Notes: a model not told the origin generated them from the letters alone. DNA of 64,000 nt from Escherichia coli (GCF_030013595.1 NZ_CP122771.1), one strand, 5' to 3'. Positions 18,055 to 30,949 are shown, numbered from the stretch's first letter. Translations and numbers: made by a program.

Positions 18055-20280
18055 ATGAGTTTTAACGCAAAGGATATGACCCAGGGCGGTCAGATTGCGT
18101 CCATGCGTATCCGCATGTTCAGCCAGATCGCCAATATCATGCTTTACTGCCTGTTTATTTTTTTCTGGATACTCGTTGGTCTGATTTTATGGGTAAAAAT
18201 AAGCTGGCAGACGTTTGTGAACGGCTGTATTTACTGGTGGTGTACCACGCTGGAAGGCATGCGGGATTTAATCAAGTCCCAGCCAGTATATGAGATCCAG
18301 TATTACGGCAAAACCTTCCGGATGAACGCGGCTCAGGTACTGCATGATAAATACATGATCTGGTGCGGTGAGCAGCTATGGTCCGCATTCGTTCTGGCGT
18401 CTGTCGTGGCCCTGGTTATTTGCCTGATTACCTTCTTTGTTGTTTCCTGGATTCTGGGGCGTCAGGGTAAACAACAGAGCGAAAATGAAGTCACAGGTGG
18501 TCGTCAGCTGACAGACAATCCGAAAGATGTTGCCCGGATGCTGAAAAAAGACGGCAAGGACTCCGATATCCGGATTGGCGACCTGCCGATTATCCGAGAT
18601 TCCGAAATCCAGAACTTCTGTCTGCACGGCACAGTCGGGGCCGGTAAGTCGGAGGTTATCCGTCGTCTGGCCAACTACGCCCGTAAGCGTGGTGATATGG
18701 TGGTGATTTATGACCGTTCAGGGGAATTTGTTAAAAGTTACTATGATCCCTCCATCGATAAAATCCTGAATCCGCTGGATGCCCGCTGTGCCGCATGGGA
18801 TTTGTGGAAGGAGTGCCTGACACAGCCGGATTTTGATAATACCGCGAACACGCTGATCCCTATGGGTACAAAAGAGGACCCGTTCTGGCAGGGGTCAGGA
18901 CGTACCATTTTTGCGGAAGCGGCGTACCTGATGCGTAATGACCCCAACCGCAGCTACAGCAAACTGGTGGACACACTGCTTTCCATCAAAATCGAAAAAC
19001 TGCGTACCTTCCTGCGTAATTCACCGGCAGCCAACCTGGTGGAAGAGAAAATTGAGAAAACGGCGATTTCCATCCGTGCTGTGCTGACCAACTACGTGAA
19101 AGCCATCCGTTACCTGCAGGGGATTGAGCATAACGGTGAGTCTTTTACCATCCGTGACTGGATGCGTGGTGTCCGGGAAGATCAGAAAAACGGCTGGCTG
19201 TTTATCTCGTCGAATGCCGACACCCATGCCTCCCTGAAGCCGGTGATCTCCATGTGGCTGTCCATTGCCATTCGTGGTCTGCTGGCAATGGGAGAAAACC
19301 GTAATCGTCGTGTGTGGTTTTTCTGTGACGAGTTACCCACGTTACACAAACTGCCGGACCTGGTGGAGATCCTGCCGGAAGCCCGTAAGTTCGGTGGCTG
19401 TTATGTGTTTGGTATCCAGTCCTATGCCCAGCTGGAAGATATCTACGGTGAGAAAGCGGCGGCCACGCTGTTTGACGTCATGAACACCCGTGCCTTTTTC
19501 CGTTCTCCCAGCCATAAGATTGCAGAGTTCGCTGCCGGTGAAATTGGTGAGAAAGAGCACCTGAAAGCCAGCGAGCAGTATTCCTACGGTGCTGACCCGG
19601 TACGTGACGGGGTATCGACCGGTAAGGATATGGAGCGTCAGACGCTGGTCAGTTATTCCGACATTCAGTCTCTGCCGGATCTGACCTGTTATGTCACTCT
19701 GCCCGGACCGTATCCGGCAGTCAAACTCTCTCTGAAATATCAGGCACGTCCGAAGGTTGCCCCGGAGTTTATTCCGCGTGACATCAACCCGGAAATGGAG
19801 AACCGTCTGAGTGCCGTACTTGCCGCAAGGGAAGCAGAAGGTCGCCAGATGGCCAGCCTCTTCGAACCGGAGGTTGCCTCCGGAGAAGGCGTGACTCAGG
19901 CTGAACAGCCACAACAGCCACAACAGCCACAACAGCCACAACAGCCACAACAGCCACAACAGCCACAACAGCCACAACAGCCACAACAGCCACAACAGCC
20001 AGTGTCTTCTGTCATCAATGATAAGAAGTCAGATGCAGGTGTGAGTGTTCCGGCAGGGGGGATCGAGCAGGAGCTGAAAATGAAACCGGAAGAAGAGATG
20101 GAACAGCAACTGCCACCCGGGATCAGTGAATCCGGTGAAGTGGTGGATATGGCCGCTTATGAGGCATGGCAACAGGAAAATCATCCGGACATCCAGCAGC
20201 ATATGCAGCGTCGTGAAGAGGTGAACATTAATGTACACCGGGAGCGCGGGGAGGATGTTGAGCCGGGAGATGATTTCTGA
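18055..20280 (+). CDS. traD: TraD, type IV coupling protein
   Basis: 741 aa, N-terminal TM segments, Walker [10 protein letters not shown]-terminal QQP repeat tract and acidic tail as in F/R100 TraD. Confidence 0.95.
19906..19995 (+). repeat. Tandem 9-bp repeat (cagccacaa) x10 encoding the (QQP)n tract of TraD
   Basis: Ten perfect 9-bp units read directly in the sequence. Confidence 0.9.
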
Positions 20281-23200
20281 TGTTGAGTTTCAGCGTTGTT
20301 AAATCGGCAGGCAGTGCCGGAAACTATTACACCGACAAGGATAATTACTATGTGCTGGGCAGCATGGGAGAACGCTGGGCTGGTCAGGGGGCTGAACAGC
20401 TTGGGCTGCAGGGCAGCGTCGATAAGGATGTTTTTACCCGTCTTCTGGAGGGCAGGCTGCCGGACGGAGCGGATTTAAGCCGCATGCAGGATGGCAGTAA
20501 TAAGCATCGTCCCGGCTACGACCTGACCTTCTCCGCCCCCAAAAGTGTCTCCATGATGGCCATGCTCGGGGGGGATAAACGTCTTATTGATGCACATAAC
20601 CAGGCCGTGGATTTTGCTGTCCGTCAGGTGGAGGCGCTGGCTTCCACACGGGTGATGACGGACGGACAGTCAGAAACGGTGCTGACCGGTAATCTGGTGA
20701 TGGCACTGTTTAACCATGACACCAGTCGCGATCAGGACCCACAGTTACACACGCATGTGGTGGTGGCTAATGTCACGCAGCATAATGGCGAGTGGAAGAC
20801 ACTGAGCAGTGACAAAGTGGGGAAAACCGGATTTTCCGAGAACGTGCTCGCGAACCGGATTGCGTTCGGGAAAATATATCAGAGTGAGTTACGTCAGCGC
20901 GTTGAGGCGCTGGGTTATGAAACCGAAGTGGTCGGTAAGCACGGTATGTGGGAGATGCCGGGCGTACCGGTGGAGGCCTTTTCCAGTCGTTCACAGGCTA
21001 TCAGGGAGGCCGTCGGTGAAGACGCCTCGCTGAAATCCCGGGATGTGGCGGCGCTGGATACGCGTAAATCCAAACAGCACGTCGATCCGGAAATCAGAAT
21101 GGCTGAATGGATGCAGACGCTGAAGGAAACCGGGTTCGACATCCGGGCATATCGTGACGCGGCGGATCAGCGTGCGGAGATCCGCACGCTGACGCCCGGG
21201 CCTGCTTCACAGGACGGGCCGGATGTGCAGCAGGCGGTGACACAGGCGATTGCCGGATTAAGTGAACGAAAAGTGCAGTTCACGTACACGGACGTGCTGG
21301 CCAGAACGGTCGGCATACTGCCGCCGGAAAATGGTGTGATTGAACGGGCACGCGCCGGTATCGATGAGGCCATCAGCCGTGAGCAGCTTATCCCCCTCGA
21401 CCGTGAGAAGGGGCTGTTCACGTCCGGGATTCATGTGCTCGATGAGCTGTCAGTCCGGGCACTCAGTCGTGACATCATGAAACAGAACCGGGTGACCGTA
21501 CATCCGGAGAAAAGTGTTCCCCGGACGGCCGGTTACAGCGATGCCGTCAGCGTGCTGGCACAGGATCGCCCGTCGCTGGCCATTGTGTCCGGGCAGGGCG
21601 GTGCAGCCGGGCAGCGTGAGCGGGTGGCTGAACTGGTCATGATGGCCCGGGAGCAGGGGCGGGAGGTGCAGATTATCGCTGCTGACCGTCGCTCGCAGAT
21701 GAACATGAAGCAGGATGAGCGTCTGTCCGGTGAGCTGATAACCGGGCGGCGTCAGCTGCTGGAGGGCATGACCTTCACGCCGGGCAGTACCGTTATCGTC
21801 GACCAGGGCGAAAAACTCTCCCTGAAAGAGACGTTAACTCTGCTGGACGGTGCCGCACGGCATAACGTACAGGTCCTGATAATCGACAGCGGGCAGCGGA
21901 CCGGTACCGGCAGTGCGCTGATGGCCATGAAGGATGCCGGAGTGAACACATATCGCTGGCAGGGGGGAGAACAGCGACCGGCAACCATCATCAGTGAACC
22001 GGACCGTAATGTCCGCTATGCCCGGCTGGCCGGAGATTTTGCGGTCAGCGTGAAAGCCGGAGAAGAGAGCGTGGCGCAGGTCAGTGGAGTACGGGAACAG
22101 GCCATGCTGACTCAGACCATTCGCAGTGAGCTGAAAACACAGGGCGTACTCGGACATCCGGAGGTGACCATGACCGCGCTGTCACCGGTCTGGCTGGACA
22201 GCCGGAGTCGTTATCTGCGGGATATGTACCGCCCGGGGATGGTGATGGAGCAGTGGAACCCGGAGACACGCAGTCATGACCGCTATGTGATAGACCGGGT
22301 GACGGCGCAGAGTCACAGCCTGACCCTGCGGGATGCGCAGGGCGAAACGCAGGTGGTGCGTATTTCCTCCCTGGACAGCAGCTGGTCGCTGTTCCGGCCG
22401 GAAAAAATGCCGGTGGCAGACGGCGAGCGACTGAGGGTGACCGGGAAAATTCCCGGACTCCGAGTCTCCGGCGGTGACCGCCTGCAGGTGGCATCCGTCA
22501 GTGAAGATGTGATGACGGTTGTTGTGCCGGGGCGGGCTGAACCGGCCTCCCTGCCTGTGAGCGATTCACCGTTCACGGCACTGAAGCTGGAGAATGGCTG
22601 GGTGGAAACGCCCGGGCATTCCGTCAGCGACAGTGCGAAGGTTTTTGCCTCCGTCACACAGATGGCAATGGACAAGGCCACCCTGAACGGTCTGGCCCGC
22701 AGTGGTCGTGATGTCCGGCTGTATTCCTCACTGGATGAAACCCGTACTGCGGAAAAACTTGCCCGCCATCCGTCCTTTACGGTGGTTTCTGAGCAGATAA
22801 AGGCGCGGGCCGGTGAGACATCGCTGGAAACGGCTATCAGTCATCAGAAGTCCGCACTTAACACACCGGCACAGCAGGCCATTCATCTTGCCCTTCCGGT
22901 GGTGGAAAGTAAAAACCTGGCCTTCAGCCATGTGGACCTGCTGACAGAGGCAAAGTCGTTTGCTGCAGAAGGAACCAGTTTTGCTGACCTGGGGCGGGAA
23001 ATCAATGCGCAGATAAAACGCGGTGACTTACTGTATGTGGATGTGGCAAAAGGCTATGGCACAGGCCTGCTGGTTTCCCGTGCGTCGTATGAGGCAGAAA
23101 AGAGCATTCTTCGCCATATTCTCGAAGGTAAGGAGGCGGTCACGCCGCTGATGGAGAGAGTACCTGGCGAACTCATGGAGAAACTGACATCAGGACAGCG

Positions 23201-25550
23201 TGCCGCCACCCGCATGATACTGGAAACGTCCGACCGTTTCACGGTGGTGCAGGGCTATGCCGGTGTGGGTAAGACCACACAGTTCCGGGCGGTGATGTCA
23301 GCCGTGAACATGCTGCCGGAGAGTGAGCGTCCCCGTGTCGTTGGGCTGGGCCCCACGCACCGTGCGGTCGGGGAGATGCGCAGCGCCGGCGTGGATGCAC
23401 AGACACTGGCGTCCTTTCTGCATGACACGCAGCTGCAGCAGCGCAGCGGAGAAACGCCGGATTTCAGCAACACGCTGTTTCTGCTCGATGAGAGCTCAAT
23501 GGTGGGCAATACCGACATGGCACGGGCATACGCCCTGATTGCGGCCGGTGGTGGTCGTGCCGTGGCCAGCGGTGACACGGACCAGCTGCAGGCCATCGCG
23601 CCCGGTCAGCCTTTCCGTCTCCAGCAGACGCGCAGTGCTGCCGATGTGGTCATCATGAAGGAGATTGTGCGCCAGACGCCGGAGCTGCGGGAGGCGGTAT
23701 ACAGCCTGATTAACCGGGATGTGGAAAGGGCACTGTCCGGGCTTGAGAGTGTGAAACCGTCTCAGGTGCCACGTCAGGAGGGCGCATGGGTACCGGAGCA
23801 CTCCGTGACGGAGTTCAGTCACAGCCAGGAAGCGAAACTGGCAGAAGCGCAGCAGAAGGCGATGCTGAAAGGTGAGGCTTTTCCGGATATTCCCATGACA
23901 CTGTATGAAGCCATTGTCCGCGATTATACCGGCAGGACGCCGGAAGCACGGGAGCAGACGCTGATTGTCACGCATCTGAATGAGGACCGGCGCGTACTGA
24001 ACAGCATGATTCATGATGCACGGGAAAAGGCCGGTGAGCTGGGAAAAGAGCAGGTCATGGTGCCTGTCCTGAACACAGCGAATATACGCGACGGGGAGTT
24101 GCGTCGTCTCTCCACCTGGGAGACACATCGGGACGCACTTGCCCTGGTGGATAATGTGTATCACCGGATTGCCGGTATCAGCAAGGATGACGGGCTGATA
24201 ACTCTGCAGGATGCGGAAGGTAACACGCGGCTGATTTCGCCCCGGGAGGCGGTGGCTGAAGGCGTCACACTGTACACTCCGGACACCATCCGGGTGGGAA
24301 CCGGTGACCGGATGCGCTTCACGAAGAGTGACCGGGAGCGCGGTTATGTGGCCAACAGCGTCTGGACGGTGACAGCGGTTTCCGGTGACAGTGTCACGCT
24401 GTCGGACGGACAGCAGACCCGGGTGATTCGCCCCGCCCAGGAGCAGGCAGAGCAACATATTGACCTGGCCTATGCCATCACCGCCCACGGTGCGCAGGGG
24501 GCGAGTGAAACCTTTGCCATTGCGCTTGAAGGCACGGAAGGTAACCGGAAACTGATGGCCGGCTTTGAGTCAGCCTACGTGGCCCTGTCGCGTATGAAGC
24601 AGCATGTGCAGGTGTACACCGATAATCGTCAGGGCTGGACGGATGCCATTAACAATGCCGTACAGAAAGGAACTGCCCACGATGTGCTGGAGCCGAAACC
24701 GGACCGGGAGGTCATGAATGCAGAGCGGCTGTTCAGTACGGCGCGGGAGCTGCGGGACGTGGCGGCAGGGCGTGCCGTTCTTCGTCAGGCGGGGCTTGCC
24801 GGGGGAGACAGTCCTGCACGGTTTATTGCACCGGGACGTAAATATCCACAGCCGTATGTGGCACTGCCGGCGTTTGACCGTAACGGCAAATCAGCCGGTA
24901 TCTGGCTGAACCCGCTGACCTCGGATGACGGAAACGGGCTGCGGGGATTCAGCGGTGAAGGCCGTGTGAAAGGCAGCGGGGATGCGCAGTTCGTGGCCCT
25001 GCAGGGCAGCCGTAACGGAGAAAGCCTGCTGGCTGATAATATGCAGGAGGGTGTCCGGATTGCCCGTGATAATCCTGACAGCGGTGTGGTGGTAAGAATC
25101 GCCGGTGAAGGCCGTCCGTGGAATCCCGGTGCCATCACCGGTGGCCGCGTGTGGGGGGATATCCCGGACAACAGCGTCCAGCCGGGAGCCGGAAATGGCG
25201 AGCCGGTCACGGCAGAGGTACTGGCACAGCGGCAGGCTGAAGAGGCCATCCGCCGTGAAACGGAACGCCGTGCGGATGAAATTGTCCGTAAAATGGCAGA
25301 GAACAAACCTGACCTGCCGGATGGCAAAACAGAGCAGGCTGTCAGGGAGATTGCCGGGCAGGAGCGTGACCGGGCTGCCATAACTGAACGGGAAGCCGCG
25401 CTGCCGGAGAGTGTGCTGCGTGAATCACAACGGGAGCGGGAAGCGGTCCGGGAGGTTGCCCGGGAAAATCTGCTGCAGGAGCGTCTGCAGCAGATGGAGC
25501 GGGATATGGTTCGTGACCTGCAGAAAGAGAAAACCCTGGGCGGAGACTGA
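20280..25550 (+). CDS. traI: TraI, relaxase/helicase
   Basis: 1756 aa, N-terminus [24 protein letters not shown]; ATGA overlap with the traD stop; size identical to F TraI. Confidence 0.95.
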   Translation: MLSFSVVKSAGSAGNYYTDKDNYYVLGSMGERWAGQGAEQLGLQGSVDKDVFTRLLEGRLPDGADLSRMQDGSNKHRPGYDLTFSAPKSVSMMAMLGGDKRLIDAHNQAVDFAVRQVEALASTRVMTDGQSETVLTGNLVMALFNHDTSRDQDPQLHTHVVVANVTQHNGEWKTLSSDKVGKTGFSENVLANRIAFGKIYQSELRQRVEALGYETEVVGKHGMWEMPGVPVEAFSSRSQAIREAVGEDASLKSRDVAALDTRKSKQHVDPEIRMAEWMQTLKETGFDIRAYRDAADQRAEIRTLTPGPASQDGPDVQQAVTQAIAGLSERKVQFTYTDVLARTVGILPPENGVIERARAGIDEAISREQLIPLDREKGLFTSGIHVLDELSVRALSRDIMKQNRVTVHPEKSVPRTAGYSDAVSVLAQDRPSLAIVSGQGGAAGQRERVAELVMMAREQGREVQIIAADRRSQMNMKQDERLSGELITGRRQLLEGMTFTPGSTVIVDQGEKLSLKETLTLLDGAARHNVQVLIIDSGQRTGTGSALMAMKDAGVNTYRWQGGEQRPATIISEPDRNVRYARLAGDFAVSVKAGEESVAQVSGVREQAMLTQTIRSELKTQGVLGHPEVTMTALSPVWLDSRSRYLRDMYRPGMVMEQWNPETRSHDRYVIDRVTAQSHSLTLRDAQGETQVVRISSLDSSWSLFRPEKMPVADGERLRVTGKIPGLRVSGGDRLQVASVSEDVMTVVVPGRAEPASLPVSDSPFTALKLENGWVETPGHSVSDSAKVFASVTQMAMDKATLNGLARSGRDVRLYSSLDETRTAEKLARHPSFTVVSEQIKARAGETSLETAISHQKSALNTPAQQAIHLALPVVESKNLAFSHVDLLTEAKSFAAEGTSFADLGREINAQIKRGDLLYVDVAKGYGTGLLVSRASYEAEKSILRHILEGKEAVTPLMERVPGELMEKLTSGQRAATRMILETSDRFTVVQGYAGVGKTTQFRAVMSAVNMLPESERPRVVGLGPTHRAVGEMRSAGVDAQTLASFLHDTQLQQRSGETPDFSNTLFLLDESSMVGNTDMARAYALIAAGGGRAVASGDTDQLQAIAPGQPFRLQQTRSAADVVIMKEIVRQTPELREAVYSLINRDVERALSGLESVKPSQVPRQEGAWVPEHSVTEFSHSQEAKLAEAQQKAMLKGEAFPDIPMTLYEAIVRDYTGRTPEAREQTLIVTHLNEDRRVLNSMIHDAREKAGELGKEQVMVPVLNTANIRDGELRRLSTWETHRDALALVDNVYHRIAGISKDDGLITLQDAEGNTRLISPREAVAEGVTLYTPDTIRVGTGDRMRFTKSDRERGYVANSVWTVTAVSGDSVTLSDGQQTRVIRPAQEQAEQHIDLAYAITAHGAQGASETFAIALEGTEGNRKLMAGFESAYVALSRMKQHVQVYTDNRQGWTDAINNAVQKGTAHDVLEPKPDREVMNAERLFSTARELRDVAAGRAVLRQAGLAGGDSPARFIAPGRKYPQPYVALPAFDRNGKSAGIWLNPLTSDDGNGLRGFSGEGRVKGSGDAQFVALQGSRNGESLLADNMQEGVRIARDNPDSGVVVRIAGEGRPWNPGAITGGRVWGDIPDNSVQPGAGNGEPVTAEVLAQRQAEEAIRRETERRADEIVRKMAENKPDLPDGKTEQAVREIAGQERDRAAITEREAALPESVLRESQREREAVREVARENLLQERLQQMERDMVRDLQKEKTLGGD

Positions 25551-26316: not shown

Positions 26317-26370
26317 CGGGTGTGGTATCTTTGACCGCAAGAGGATGATTCGTCAGAGGCAGAACACAGC

Positions 26371-26931
26371 ATGACAGAGCAGAAGCGACCGGTACTGACA
26401 CTGAAGCGGAAAACGGAAGGGGAGACGCCTGTCCGCAGGCGGAAAACCATCATCAATGTCACCACGCCACCAAAGTGGAAGGTGAAAAAGCAGAAGCTGG
26501 CCGAGAAAGCAGCCCGGGAAGCAGAGCTGGCGGCAAAAAAAGCGCAGGCCAGACAGGCACTGTCCATTTATCTGAATCTGCCCACGCTGGATGAGGCCGT
26601 GAATACCCTGAAACCCTGGTGGCCGGGATTGTTTGACGGTGACACGCCCCGGCTTCTGGCCTGCGGTATCCGGGACGTGTTACTGGAAGACGTGGCGCAG
26701 CGGAATATCCCGCTCTCGCATAAAAAACTGCGCAGGGCGCTGAAGGCCATCACCCGTTCAGAAAGCTATCTGTGTGCCATGAAAGCCGGTGCCTGCCGGT
26801 ATGACACGGAAGGGTATGTGACGGAGCATATTTCTCAGGAGGAGGAAGCGTATGCGGCAGCGCGTCTGGATAAAATCCGCCGCCAGAACCGGATAAAGGC
26901 AGAACTTCAGGCCGTGCTTGATGAGAAATAA
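26371..26931 (+). CDS. finO: FinO, RNA chaperone of fertility inhibition (intact)
   Basis: 186 aa with N-terminus [25 protein letters not shown]; full length, not IS-interrupted as in F. Confidence 0.95.
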
Positions 26932-27062
26932 AAAAAAGCCTCCATCAGAGAGGAGGCAGGGAAATAAGGCTTAAAAGGAAATAACTTCCGTACCCGAAAG
27001 GAAGCCAATTCAGTAGATTATTTAACACCATAATACTGACGGGTTAAAGAGGAGTGATAAAG

Positions 27063-27275
27063 ATGAATGGATTCAGAAACAGTTCACGGAACGGTCAGGT
27101 CTGGTGCTGGCAGCGTGCCGGAAGCCGGGCCGTTATTCTGGAAGTCAGTGGTCGCTGGATGGAAGCGGCAGAAGCATGGCGACGGGCTGCCAGTGTTGCA
27201 CCCCGGACAGACTGGCAGCAGTTTGCCCGAAAAAGGGCTGAACACTGCCACCGGCGCTGCCGGGGAAGGGTGTAA
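27063..27275 (+). CDS. Small hypothetical Arg/Trp-rich protein (70 aa)
   Basis: Strong RBS aaagaggag upstream of ATG 27063; basic protein MNGFRNSSRNGQVWCWQRAGSR...; coding status uncertain. Confidence 0.3.
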   Translation: MNGFRNSSRNGQVWCWQRAGSRAVILEVSGRWMEAAEAWRRAASVAPRTDWQQFARKRAEHCHRRCRGRV

Positions 27276-27561
27276 CGAAAAAAGCAGCCTTCATTACTCC
27301 AGGTATTCAGAAGGCTGAATAATGCATGAGATTTTTCTTTTTTATATCTGGCCTGGCAGTATGACCAGTCAGCAGTCATTATCACAGGATTATTGCTGTA
27401 TTAAGTAATAGCGTGCTGTTTTGTGATTGATTTCATAAAACAAGACGTCGTTTAATATGCGCCTGAATATTCACGAGGGAAGTCTTTCTTTTTATATGGT
27501 GCTCCCGGAAATAAAATATTTTTTGTTATTGCTCACCCTGTTATGAATAAAAGGTAAAAAC

Positions 27562-28239
27562 ATGGAAGAAAATAATACGAGTACAGATAAAAACACCCTG
27601 ACAGCCCTTATTGATTATGAAAACTGTGGCAGCCTGAAAAATATTTCCCTTGAGCAGTATGGGGAACTGATTATTTTTGTCGGGCCACAGCAGAACGTCG
27701 TTGTTCTTCCTGCAGACTCTTTTCCTGAAGGTGCGAGAATCACTATCAGGCAGGTGAGTGGTGTGTCCAGGAATAATGTCGATTTTCATCTTGTTCTGGA
27801 GCTGGGGCGGATAAGCTGTTGTGCAGCAGGGAAAGATAAAACATACCACATCATTTCATCGGATAAGGGATATGACGGTGTTATCAGGACGCTGAAAGAA
27901 GCCGGTATTACCTGCATTCGTCGTGATGTACCGGAAAGTATTGCTGCTGCCGGTGAGTCTGGTGCAGACAAAAGTAACTGCCTGAAACAACCTTCTGTTC
28001 CTGAAAGTGATATCGTCAGCCGTTGGGCAGGAAAGCTGCAGCAGATAGCCGGCAGCGGAGCCGGTAATATGCCTGTGTCCGTCGAAACATTTAATAATTA
28101 TTTAAAGTCACACATGCGTGACGAATGGAACAAAACCCGGGCAGTGGCGATAAGGAATGAACTGGTTCGTCGGGGAGTCACAGAAGTCAGGGAGAAAAAG
28201 ATAATCTGGAAAAAGGCGAAAAAGGAGAATAAAGCATGA
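27562..28239 (+). CDS. Hypothetical protein (225 aa)
   Basis: ATG with AT-rich promoter-like upstream region; basic C-terminal tail; no family recognised with confidence. Confidence 0.5.
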   Translation: MEENNTSTDKNTLTALIDYENCGSLKNISLEQYGELIIFVGPQQNVVVLPADSFPEGARITIRQVSGVSRNNVDFHLVLELGRISCCAAGKDKTYHIISSDKGYDGVIRTLKEAGITCIRRDVPESIAAAGESGADKSNCLKQPSVPESDIVSRWAGKLQQIAGSGAGNMPVSVETFNNYLKSHMRDEWNKTRAVAIRNELVRRGVTEVREKKIIWKKAKKENKA

Positions 28240-28267
28240 GGTATCGCAGCTGTGCTCAGATAAAAAC

Positions 28268-28302
28268 AGCCCCCGTTGCGGTTGCGGAGCGAAGGGGGCT
28301 GA
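28268..28302 (+). terminator. Hairpin after the 225-aa gene
   Basis: CAGCCCCC ... GGGGGCTG stem 30 bp after the stop codon. Confidence 0.45.
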
Positions 28303-28555
28303 AAAGGGGAATTAAGGATGATTGTTATTATGGTGAACCAGAAGGTTATCCCTGTCTGTAAGCTGAATCGGACTAAACGACATAATACCTGTAACATCAC
28401 TGAAACATCAGCGGTATATGTGGTGTGTATGAATATCCCGGCAGCATTAATTCTTCTGTGAGGAAATGCATTGATAAGAAACAGAATAAGTCGGTGGTAA
28501 GGAAAATGAATTTATTAATTCAGTATCCGTTTATCAGATAAAAAAGGGAAAGAGT

Positions 28556-29149
28556 ATGGTGAAACTGATTATTTTTATTCTCATTGTTCTGATTATTGCA
28601 GCGTTACTTATCCGGATTATCCTCAGAAGTGTAAATCAGCATTCTCCTTTGCTGATGCAATTGCATGCGGCAGGTATACGGACCGGTGATGCAGAGCGAA
28701 TACTGTCCAGCGGTGAATACTGGCAACGTCAGAAGACGCTGCTGACAGAAAGGGAAGTCAGTTTTATGAAAGGACTGTTCAGAATTGTGGATATGAAGCG
28801 GTGGTATCTGTGTCCGCAGGTACGGGTCGCGGATATCGTCCAGCTGAACGAGAATATCCGGCCACGATCACGCCAGTGGTGGCAGTTATTCAGAATGGTG
28901 TCTCAGTGGCATGTTGATGTGGTTATCGTTGAGCGGCGTTCGTTCAGTATTGTTGCAGCAGTAGAGCTGGATGATGCCAGCCATTTACGACCGGAACGCA
29001 GACGCCGGGATATTCTTCTGGAAGAGGTTCTGAGGCAGGCTGGTATTCCGTTGCTCAGAAGCCACGATGCCAGAAAACTGCTGCAGATGACCGGAGAATG
29101 GCTGAATACAACAGGGGCTGATCAGCAGTCCCCGGAACATCGTAGCTGA
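28556..29149 (+). CDS. Membrane-anchored protein with a PD-(D/E)xK-like motif, DUF2726-like
   Basis: N-terminal TM helix MVKLIIFILIVLIIAALLIRII; motif HVDVVIVERRSFSIVAAVELDDASH suggests a restriction-endonuclease-like fold; assignment from recall only. Confidence 0.5.
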   Translation: MVKLIIFILIVLIIAALLIRIILRSVNQHSPLLMQLHAAGIRTGDAERILSSGEYWQRQKTLLTEREVSFMKGLFRIVDMKRWYLCPQVRVADIVQLNENIRPRSRQWWQLFRMVSQWHVDVVIVERRSFSIVAAVELDDASHLRPERRRRDILLEEVLRQAGIPLLRSHDARKLLQMTGEWLNTTGADQQSPEHRS

Positions 29150-29303
29150 CGCCTTCGCGTTGCTCAGTTGTCCAACCCCGGGAGCGGGAAAAAGCAAGTT
29201 TTCCCCGCTCCCGGCGTTTCTGTAATAAAAAACGGGAAATGGTGGTCACAGAGTAAATGCCGGAACCACCTGTACCCAAACTTTATATAATAATGGTGAA
29301 TAT

Positions 29304-29768
29304 ATGAAATATGATGATGTATCAGAATTGATGATTAAGCGTGAACACAATATTCTTATTATGGGGAATTCTGCCTCCCACATTGATAAATTTTTTAAGG
29401 GATATTCTATACCAGGTTCTAAATATTATGATTTCACTCAGATTAACAGTGATTCAGATGTAGAGAGAAATGAGCATGCTGTCTCATTTATCAGGGATGC
29501 AATGAATAGTGAAGAGCACACAATCATTTTTAATTGTGTTGGGTGGCATGATTTAGGTGGTGGATCAGCAGTATCACAGTTTGCAATGATGGTCAGAAAA
29601 TTTGGTAAACAACTTATTGTCGCTGTAAGTGAAAAGGATGCCATCAAATTAAAAGATAACTTTAATATTATTGGAACGTTGTCATATGGTAAAGAAAATT
29701 TTATTGCCATGAGTCATACGAAAAGCGAGTTAACTGGAGGGAAATGTCGGTACCGGATTAAAAATTGA
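29304..29768 (+). CDS. Hypothetical AT-rich orphan protein (154 aa)
   Basis: ATG preceded by AT-rich region and a strong upstream hairpin; no recognisable family. Confidence 0.45.
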   Translation: MKYDDVSELMIKREHNILIMGNSASHIDKFFKGYSIPGSKYYDFTQINSDSDVERNEHAVSFIRDAMNSEEHTIIFNCVGWHDLGGGSAVSQFAMMVRKFGKQLIVAVSEKDAIKLKDNFNIIGTLSYGKENFIAMSHTKSELTGGKCRYRIKN

Positions 29769-29967
29769 TGTAAATAAAAAGCATACTTATTGGCTGGAGT
29801 GACGCCTTCGTGCTTCTGTAGTAAAAAGCGGGAAAGGCAGGTAATAGTCAGCAACAGGGAATGTGGTATTATCGCGGCGGGTGTCTGAGCCTTTCTGGTT
29901 CAGGCAAGACGCAGGTACCAGAAATGCGAAGACCCCACTCGTTAATCCATTAACTCGTGAGGCCTGC

Positions 29968-30174
29968 ATGAAGTACCTTAACACTACTGATTGTAGCCTC
30001 TTCCTTGCAGAGAGGTCAAAGTTTATGACGAAATATGCCCTTATCGGGTTGCTCGCCGTGTGCGCCACGGTGTTGTGTTTTTCACTGATATTCAGGGAAC
30101 GGTTATGTGAGCTGAATATTTACAGGGGAAATACAGTGGTGCAGGTAACTCTGGCCTACGAAGCACGGAAGTAA
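29968..30174 (+). CDS. SrnB' overlapping leader ORF (mok-like) of the srnB locus
   Basis: ATG 29968 in frame with the toxin; MKYLNTTDCSLFLAERSKF... precedes the toxin Met. Confidence 0.5.
   Translation: MKYLNTTDCSLFLAERSKFMTKYALIGLLAVCATVLCFSLIFRERLCELNIYRGNTVVQVTLAYEARK
30025..30174 (+). CDS. srnB: SrnB, Hok/Gef-family membrane toxin
   Basis: 49-aa peptide MTKYALIGLLAVCATVLCFSLIFRERLCELNIYRGNTVVQVTLAYEARK matches recalled F SrnB/Hok family. Confidence 0.8.
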   Translation: MTKYALIGLLAVCATVLCFSLIFRERLCELNIYRGNTVVQVTLAYEARK

Positions 30175-30457
30175 GCTGCCGGGCGGGGACGGAAGTCCCC
30201 GCTTTCCGGAAGTGTGAGGTATTTCAGGGGCAGACACCCGACATGCCAGAAACAGCCGGTCCCGCCCGGGGCCGGCATCCTGGTTAAGGCATTTCCTGCT
30301 TTTCAGTCATTTCATTATCAAAATCACATTAAACGGTCGTAATCAGACATGATTTGTGCGCCAACACAGATCTTCGTCACAATTCTCAAGTCGCTGATTT
30401 CAAAAAACTGTAGTATCCTCTGCGAAACGATCCCTGTTTGAGTATTGAGGAGGCGAG

Positions 30458-30706
30458 ATGTCGCAGACAGAAAATGCAGTGACTTCCTCATCAGGTACAA
30501 AGCGAGCATACAGAAAAGGTAATCCTCTGACGCTTGCAGAACGTCAGCAGGCATCCCTGGCAAGAAAACGAGCTACACATAAAGAACTCAGAGTGTTCAT
30601 TCCTGCTGCGTTAAAAGCGCAATTGCAGGTGATGTGTGAAGCTGAGGGCGTTACCCAGGCTGAGATGATTGCCGAACTGATAAAGCAGAAGAGTGCTTTT
30701 AGCTAA
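30458..30706 (+). CDS. repA2: CopB (RepA2), transcriptional repressor of repA
   Basis: 82 aa with N-terminus [24 protein letters not shown] as recalled for IncFII CopB. Confidence 0.85.
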
Positions 30707-30949
30707 CTAAAATGTAGCGACATCACATTCTTGCCTGTTTCTGGTGTGCGTGATAGATTGCTGATCGTTTAAGGAATTTTGTGGCTGGCCACGCCGTAAG
30801 GTGGCAGGGAACTGGTTCTGATGTGGATTTACAGGAGCCAGAAAAGCGAAAACCCCGATAATCTTTCTATGTTTGGCGACGAAGAAGATTACCGGGGCCA
30901 TCTAAAAACCGTATAGCCAACAATTCAGCTATGCGGGGAGTATAGTTAT

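Follow-up and report, generated by a model that had tools for sequence, protein, structure and literature searches.

What occupies the interval between finO and the replication region of F-like plasmids, and do its genes act as one system or as several? We examined this question in a 64,000-nucleotide stretch of Escherichia coli DNA (GCF_030013595.1, NZ_CP122771.1), referred to here as the window and numbered from its first letter. The window is part of an F-type conjugative plasmid, in which four open reading frames (ORF1 to ORF4, 27063-29768) lie downstream of finO, on the same strand as traI-traX-finO. An earlier note, made without database searches, had described them as an accessory block of orphan genes. 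The term orphan proved too strong: the domain searches and structure prediction recommended in that note gave family identities for ORF1-3, namely, with a borderline score, ANR (NF033650), PIN7/NYN (PF18475) and DUF2726 (PF10881), and a placement for ORF4. Three genes are thus of known families; ORF4 is placed here for the first time, among the P-loop proteins and as a degenerate member. We favour the view, which we consider reasonably probable, that these are four independent accessory units, in the proposed roles of an ANR regulator, an RNase, a membrane DNase and a dead P-loop protein. They are ordinary, widely sequenced IncF backbone and cassette genes, and nothing points to a categorically new system.

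All four ORFs are real genes under purifying selection, not chance frames. Pairwise dN/dS ratios against allelic plasmids were 0.21–0.56 for ORF1, 0.20 for ORF2, 0.17–0.31 for ORF3 and 0.30–0.45 for ORF4; those for finO were 0.05–0.17. The genes are separated by gaps of 131–316 bp, and a hairpin follows each of ORF1-3. We picture the interval as a variable accessory segment of F-like plasmids, placed between finO and the hok/sok-repA replication region, and made up of four autonomous single-gene units, each with its own ribosome-binding site, rather than an operon or a multi-gene system.

The designation 'block' is also misleading, because the four genes are distributed independently. This was the outcome of the co-occurrence check proposed in the earlier note, for which we used PLSDB (72,556 plasmids). 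ORF1 is found in 4673 records at the DNA level and in 4874 at the protein level (tblastn), the ORF2 allele of the window in 254, all at least 99% identical, ORF3 in 3366, and ORF4 in 636 by DNA and 797 by protein. The PIN7 family as a whole, to which ORF2 belongs, is found in 3146 plasmids, 2331 of these from Klebsiella. The entire interval is present at a coverage of at least 80% in 33 among the 5000 best-scoring records.

Comparison of gene orders reveals how this mosaic is built. In R1 and R100, finO is followed by an ANR gene, a thermonuclease (SNase) gene, hha, a DUF2726 gene and then repA2. Both backbone genes of this arrangement, ORF1 and ORF3, recur in the window at the same position; the window differs in having an NYN gene in place of the thermonuclease–Hha pair, and an additional ORF4 cassette before hok/sok. 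Other plasmid loci show further combinations: ANR, PIN7 and hok (L005); ANR, NYN, DUF2726, ORF4 and hok, all in strongly diverged alleles (L011 and L024); and an ANR-like gene, SNase, ORF4 and hok (L023). Locus L004 (NZ_LR130554, 1833-6154) carries two copies of the ANR region, with PIN7 plus thermonuclease-Hha-DUF2726, and has the look of an intermediate in recombination between an R1-type and a window-type arrangement. The Klebsiella IncFII_K plasmid pG12-KPC-2 (L029, 3998-6960) has PIN7, a 214-amino-acid (aa) hypothetical protein, DUF2726, a 102-aa hypothetical protein, a PLD-family nuclease and repA2, and no ANR gene. The slot in F-like plasmids therefore holds nucleases of four folds, NYN, Vsr-like DUF2726, SNase and, in pG12-KPC-2, PLD-type; in E. 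coli lineages it also holds the small H-NS-interacting proteins ANR and Hha. Such contents support a function in nucleic-acid conflict or at the interface with the host. Our best guess at its purpose would be regulation at the host interface, together with competition at the level of nucleic acids during or after transfer.

The interval 26900-30200 is 99.9–100% identical to several public plasmids, including pO26_2 (NC_013362, E. coli O26:H11), in which ORF1-4 are annotated as hypothetical protein, PIN domain-containing, DUF2726 domain-containing and hypothetical protein, respectively. The earlier note had stated that no plasmid function is assigned to these genes, and this stands: the records read hypothetical, PIN domain, DUF2726 or ANR family, and the literature searched contains no experimental plasmid function for any of the four. 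A plasmid paper that tabulates this run of genes lists them without functions (PMC2762410).

ORF1 (27063-27275, + strand) encodes 70 aa from an ATG, or 73 aa from a GTG at 27054. As recorded in the earlier note, it is basic and has a strong ribosome-binding site: the 8.2 kDa product has an isoelectric point of 11.75, with 15 Lys and Arg against 5 Asp and Glu residues, and AGGAG lies 8 nt 5' of the ATG. Its match to the NCBIfam model ANR_neg_reg (NF033650) has a score of 30.3 bits (E 2.8e-7, model positions 3-51 of 54). At the same position in R1 and L005, the orthologues clear the curated cut-off with 40.1 and 37.8 bits, and those in L023 and L011 reach 29.0 and 24.7 bits; the automated PGAP label of the R1/R100 orthologue is 'ANR family transcriptional regulator'. 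Judged by this profile, ORF1 is a predicted ANR-family (Aar-like) small anti-regulator and an IncF backbone gene. The family is further characterised by three conserved predicted alpha-helices. A search of Protein Data Bank (PDB) sequences with ORF1 matched only helical, TPR-like designed repeat proteins, the same search gave no informative match for ORF2-4, and the PHROG collection yielded only two families of unknown function, matching ORF1 and ORF3.

ANR proteins such as Aar are smaller than 10 kDa, lack a DNA-binding domain, and bind AraC/XylS activators and H-NS (PMC4983702, PMC5570504). ORF1 resembles them in size and in the lack of a DNA-binding domain; it differs in its residence in a conjugative plasmid backbone, in an overlapping cis-antisense RNA, and in unusually divergent alleles, which are 45–72% identical in aa sequence beside finO genes that are 91–99% identical. 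The core motif AAEAW...AP is retained even in alleles that are merely 45% identical. By analogy with Aar, ORF1 would act without binding DNA, through binding to other regulators. The likely partner is host H-NS, so that ORF1 would tune H-NS silencing of AT-rich plasmid genes, as the Hha homologue encoded two genes downstream in R1 and R100 does.

The overlapping RNA, which the earlier note had missed, lies on the strand opposite ORF1 (27172-27355, − strand) and is a full-length match to the Rfam family AS-pc02 (RF02876; 190.6 bits, gathering threshold 40, E 4e-50, model positions 1-185 of 185, structure kept). It covers the final 104 nt of ORF1 and 80 nt further downstream; the R1 orthologue has a copy that scores 229.5 bits. 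AS-pc02 comes from the IncFII plasmid pHK01, where it is described as 'Antisense to pHK01_099', and the full-length, high-scoring copy in the window likewise lies opposite a pHK01_099 homologue. In the literature searched, the sole mention of AS-pc02 was its detection in vesicles. It probably restrains expression of ORF1. A hairpin just 3' of the ORF1 stop (27285-27317, + strand) lies within AS-pc02 and is a possible terminator; the fold of 27272-27350 (−15.4 kcal/mol, z = −1.6) is weak taken alone.

The ORF1 gene of the window arose by recombination within the gene. The 5' half shares 85% and 78% of its nucleotides with L011 and L005, respectively, and the 3' half and AS-pc02 resemble R1 (91% and 90%), with the crossover near 27172, at the end of AS-pc02. 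We had considered whether the antisense RNA was the cause of the conserved 3' half of ORF1; this recombinant origin, together with the lack of AS-pc02 in L005, L011 and L024, rules that out.

ORF2 (27562-28239, + strand) is the 225-aa protein of the earlier note. Its N-terminal region (aa 13-122, 27598-27927) matches the Pfam model PIN7 (PF18475) over all 103 model positions (1-103; E 6.7e-18). The motifs IDYEN, NNVDFH and DKGYD, and the acidic residues D18, E20, D74, D101 and D105, are invariant in 22 homologues with identities down to 25%. An AlphaFold2 model (mean predicted local distance difference test score 81) has an N-terminal alpha/beta domain with the three-layer fold of PIN/NYN domains, a disordered linker, and a C-terminal unit of three helices and a beta-hairpin (aa 148-216, 28003-28209). 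By sequence and model, ORF2 is a predicted NYN-type PIN-like nuclease domain, with its acidic residues intact, joined to a winged helix. It would be a metal-dependent nuclease, most likely an RNase, guided by the C-terminal winged helix. It differs from NYN RNases such as the MARF1 NYN domain and LabA-like VPA0982, and from PIN7 proteins, in this C-terminus, which no Pfam model matches, and in being plasmid-borne and solitary.

Homologues of ORF2 that are 57%, 53% and ∼40% identical sit at the same place, just past finO or the ANR gene; a 34%-identical homologue has another context, beside DUF4165/Big-domain proteins. The literature found under PIN7/PF18475 concerned plant auxin carriers only. 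The ORF2 unit is closed by a GC-rich hairpin (inverted repeat I23, 28267-28301, + strand) 28 nt past the stop codon; the fold of 28240-28320 has a free energy of −26.3 kcal/mol (z = −1.75). Two 198-aa database proteins, P0069 and P0070, consist of the N-terminal 45% of ORF2 (100% identical) and a DUF2726 C-terminus; most likely they are deletion fusions of neighbouring ORF2- and ORF3-type genes.

The statement in the earlier note that the third gene encodes a DUF2726-like, membrane-anchored protein with a PD-(D/E)xK-like motif proved accurate. ORF3 (28556-29149, + strand) encodes 197 aa, or 196 aa from the GTG at 28559 chosen by PGAP, and matches Pfam DUF2726 (PF10881) with an E-value of 1.3e-21 over aa 60-171 (28733-29068), with an additional weak match to REase_MTES_1575. 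The 19-residue window at aa 5-23 (28568-28624), the predicted transmembrane helix, has a mean Kyte–Doolittle hydropathy of 3.45; this N-terminus is hydrophobic in 15 of 15 homologues and variable in sequence. Residues E67, D79, D121, E137, D139, D140, H143, R150, R151 and D152 are invariant in 15 sequences with identities down to 53%, so that the D...E-x-D...H constellation (D121, E137, D139, H143) is kept. Together these features identify ORF3 as a putative transmembrane-anchored, Vsr-like DUF2726 nuclease, encoded by an IncF backbone gene that is present in R1 and R100 and is 90–98% conserved; it is predicted to be a PD-(D/E)xK DNase anchored in the inner membrane. DUF2726 has been classified with Vsr and DUF559 in the PD-(D/E)xK superfamily, with no assigned function (PMC3424549), and some presumed defence proteins combine it with an AbiJ N-terminal domain (PMC3710099). 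ORF3 shares with this branch the Pfam match and the D...E-x-D...H constellation, and adds the N-terminal anchor, which is a trait of the plasmid clade, not of the Pfam family.

The naming of such proteins has been misleading. Going by the R100 gene names, the plasmid gene yihA is probably the DUF2726 gene. A plasmid 'yihA', mentioned with hha, has been taken for the chromosomal (checkpoint) GTPase gene, as a candidate gene only (PMC4794485), and the 196-aa DUF2726 protein of pEntH10407 has been named 'Superfamily I DNA/RNA helicase' (PMC2762410).

A strong hairpin begins 25 nt past the ORF3 stop (29174-29218, + strand). Its 20-nt arms are 90% complementary, the minimum free energy is −36.3 kcal/mol (z = −4.08), and none of 200 shuffled sequences was as stable. 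Homology to the window reaches 29210 in R1, where the record ends, and 29233 in L004. Because R1 and L004, both without ORF4, stay homologous across the hairpin, it belongs to the 3' flank of ORF3 and not to ORF4. The description of ORF4 in the earlier note, an AT-rich 154-aa orphan after a strong hairpin, thus holds for its coordinates, its composition and the presence of the hairpin; the assignment of the hairpin and the orphan status do not survive.

ORF4 (29304-29768, + strand) has a GC content of 34.0%, against 52.2% for the window, and gave no match in Pfam, NCBIfam, PADLOC, PHROG or PDB sequences. Its close homologues, 58–95% identical and all labelled hypothetical, are confined to E. 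coli and Shigella. An exhaustive profile search of 1.84 billion representative sequences found 46 related proteins. The distant relatives, from Salmonella, E. coli, Yersinia, Providencia, Citrobacter and Klebsiella, have 140–165 aa and are annotated as 'ATP-binding protein' or hypothetical; most of them have a canonical Walker A motif (G-x-TG[SA]GK[ST]) and a Walker B motif (LILD). In the alignment, ORF4 reads GNSASHID at the Walker A position (aa 21-28, 29364-29387) and IIFN at the Walker B position (aa 74-77, 29523-29534), so that the Walker A Lys is replaced by Ile, the Walker A Ser/Thr by Asp, and the Walker B Asp by Asn. The replacements, Asn included, are fixed throughout the IncF clade, and two of the aligned relatives, P0139 and P0149, are likewise degenerate at the Walker motifs. 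ORF4 accordingly lacks both the Walker A pattern GxxxxGK[ST] and the Walker B pattern hhhhD, and has the predicted P-loop alpha/beta fold and recognisable homology to members that bear the motifs. Full-length ORF4 is maintained over alleles that are 58–95% identical, with 34 invariant positions, and the best structural match of its model is RdrA of RADAR.

We conclude that ORF4 is probably a conserved pseudo-NTPase offshoot of a plasmid-specific mini P-loop family. As the descendant of a mini P-loop ATPase, and predicted to be catalytically dead, it could act only by binding. It shares with this family profile homology (E 1e-14 to 1e-4), length, the SKYYDF and ARKxGKRLIV motifs and a predicted AAA+-like alpha/beta core; it differs in its position beside hok/sok, and not inside a transfer operon or adjoining topoisomerase III. 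Two other ideas about ORF4 were discarded. The segment 'LGGGSAVSQF...LIVAVS', which is T4-loop-like, had raised the possibility of a mini FtsZ/tubulin; the GGG is not conserved in the family, and the structural and profile matches are to P-loop/AAA+ proteins. An obligate module of ORF4 and hok/sok finds no support, because L005 has hok without ORF4.

The motif-intact relatives of ORF4 are all encoded in transfer regions of conjugative plasmids, one of them in a thin-pilus operon, flanked by a pilQ-like ATPase gene and a pilR-like gene, and another between VirB2 and VirB3-VirB4. In three unrelated backbones (L015-L017, L018-L019 and L027-L028) the gene is the immediate 5' neighbour of a plasmid topoisomerase III gene, which it overlaps by 4 nt, abuts or precedes by 22 nt; in a fourth (L020/L021) it lies two genes upstream of topoisomerase III. 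This recurrence suggests that the mini P-loop protein and topoisomerase III are an undescribed functional pair. SNase and Hha (L015-L017), H-NS (L020/L021) and Hha (L027) are encoded near the mini P-loop genes, and this accessory kit is the same as the finO-distal kit of IncF plasmids.

In the reading that we favour, families, retained or lost catalytic motifs, purifying selection and independent mosaic distribution are observed, and from these we infer the molecular partners and the biological purpose of the four genes. Several points weigh against it. Family membership is the whole source of the functions proposed, and the orientation of ORF3 in the membrane is not fixed by its sequence. With 30.3 bits, ORF1 of the window is 1.7 bits short of the curated ANR cut-off of 32. 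No gene of the AraC family, the typical ANR partner, is annotated in pO26_2 1-33000 or in the tra-distal segment; the partner of ORF1 is therefore more likely to be H-NS or a host regulator, and host-encoded AraC-type partners may exist. AS-pc02 was below the gathering threshold at three other ANR-bearing loci, L005, L011 and L024, and so is tied to one allelic lineage rather than to the ANR gene generally. Finally, a promoter scan found five sigma-70-like sites, where shuffled sequences gave an expectation of 6.1; because there is no enrichment, read-through from the tra operon is possible, against the autonomy of each gene.

Such read-through is the basis of a different explanation, that the four genes form the distal end of the tra operon, are reached by transcription past finO and serve conjugation by handling nucleic acid at the mating pore, by acting in the recipient, or by tuning tra expression through H-NS. 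Their strand and position directly downstream of traI-traX-finO fit this, as do the membrane anchor of ORF3 and the location of motif-intact ORF4 relatives inside transfer operons (at VirB2/VirB3, at the pilQ-like/pilR-like pair, and at traF and traE/topoisomerase III). Conjugation is reportedly influenced by RmoA, the Hha homologue that R100 carries in this slot (Nieto and colleagues, 1998). Against this, a terminator-like hairpin in a U-run context (26938-26957, z = −3.2) follows finO, further hairpins follow ORF1-3, and the spacers are long and AT-rich. Most conjugative IncF plasmids, R1 and R100 among them, lack ORF2 and ORF4, which therefore cannot be needed for transfer. We regard service to conjugation as quite unlikely. 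Unlikely too, to a lesser degree, is the proposal that the finO-repA gap is a defence or counter-defence hotspot, in which ORF2-4 each act alone as effectors against phages or plasmids, or inhibit host defences, and diversify in an arms race, with ANR/AS-pc02 a neighbouring regulator. F-like plasmids do concentrate nucleases in this slot (NYN, DUF2726, SNase and PLD); PIN7 alleles differ by 43–66% where finO and repA1 are 91–99% identical, which resembles turnover; and the DUF2726–AbiJ fusions, the RdrA match of ORF4 and its low GC content (34%), like that of many recently gained cassettes, point the same way. However, no component hidden Markov model of PADLOC-DB v2, a library that dates from 2023, matched any of the four proteins at E ≤ 0.1; ORF3 is a stable backbone gene, unlike a gene in turnover; the NTPase motifs of ORF4 are lost; and the dN/dS of 0.20 for ORF2 gives no sign of positive selection. 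A bolder joint claim seems to us doubtful to a similar extent. It holds that the finO–replication gap is an uncharacterised conflict locus, in which swapped and diversified nucleases (NYN/PIN7–winged helix, membrane DUF2726, SNase and PLD-Nuc) and a pseudo-ATPase are deployed against phages, rival plasmids or host defences; that expression of the AT-rich cassettes is set by plasmid H-NS modulators, either ANR with its antisense RNA or Hha; and, separately, that a rare, undescribed family of mini P-loop ATPases is coupled to plasmid topoisomerase III, its IncF form being dead and acting by binding only.

Two further readings concern single pairs of genes. ORF1 and ORF4 might be decaying or spurious frames without protein function, as the lost catalytic motifs of ORF4, the many truncated database entries, the unannotated or frameshifted copies in some plasmids (L024), and the shortness of ORF1 and its overlap with an RNA gene could imply. 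This is very improbable, given the dN/dS values of both genes, the upkeep of full-length ORF4 across divergent alleles with its 34 invariant positions, and, for ORF1, the AAEAW...AP core kept at 45% identity and the strong ribosome-binding site. A toxin–antitoxin addiction module, with ORF2 as a PIN toxin and ORF1 or AS-pc02 as antitoxin, would be in keeping with PIN domains being the commonest type II toxins, with a small basic ORF and an antisense RNA upstream, and with hok/sok nearby. ORF2 is, however, of the NYN type with a winged helix and not VapC-type; the 286-bp gap between ORF1 and ORF2 has a hairpin inside; ORF1 is in 4874 plasmids against 254 for the ORF2 allele, and in Klebsiella PIN7 directly follows finO without ANR; and the complementarity of AS-pc02 is to ORF1 and not ORF2. 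A VapBC-type pair of ORF1 and ORF2 is rejected on the grounds of spacing, distribution and NYN type, and the addiction module as a whole is close to refuted. We therefore retain four independent accessory units as the preferred account.

In E. coli and Klebsiella, genes for antibiotic resistance and virulence travel mainly on IncF plasmids, and genes of the ORF1-4 types, for which the literature searched gives no function, sit in thousands of sequenced plasmids. The identities proposed here are testable: ORF1 as a binder of H-NS or of an AraC-type regulator, with an antisense RNA; ORF2 as an RNase; ORF3 as a membrane-anchored DNase; and ORF4 as a pseudo-ATPase. They would also correct the naming of the DUF2726 protein as a 'Superfamily I helicase' and, presumably, the reading of plasmid 'yihA' as a chromosomal GTPase. 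A finO-distal slot of nucleases and H-NS modulators is a reasonable entry to the study of plasmid establishment, host silencing and competition. Two leads seem to us the most worth pursuing: ANR/AS-pc02, through which F-like plasmids may modulate H-NS, and the topoisomerase III-linked family of mini P-loop proteins.

The surroundings of the four genes add some minor observations. Upstream lie traI (20280-25550), traX and finO (26371-26931, + strand). In the window traX directly precedes finO (26317-26370); R1 and R100 have an additional alpha/beta hydrolase gene in between. The ORF3 hairpin and the ORF4 cassette are flanked by a pair of 18-nt direct repeats (TGACGCCTTCG..., repeat family D9, 83% identity; left copy 29147-29164, right copy 29800-29817), which may be a recombination scar; two-copy short repeats also arise by chance. 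Downstream of ORF4 are hok/sok (∼29879-30174) and repA2/copB (30458-30706), then CopA RNA and repA1. A 64-aa ORF (30707-30901, − strand), which pO26_2 lists as hypothetical (WP_024262531.1), extends into the region of the CopA antisense RNA (30844-30932) and is probably an artefact of annotation. The Rfam 'sok' model (RF01794) matches 29879-30035 on the + strand, that is, the strand of the hok ORF and not the antisense strand; the model seems to cover the leader region of hok mRNA.

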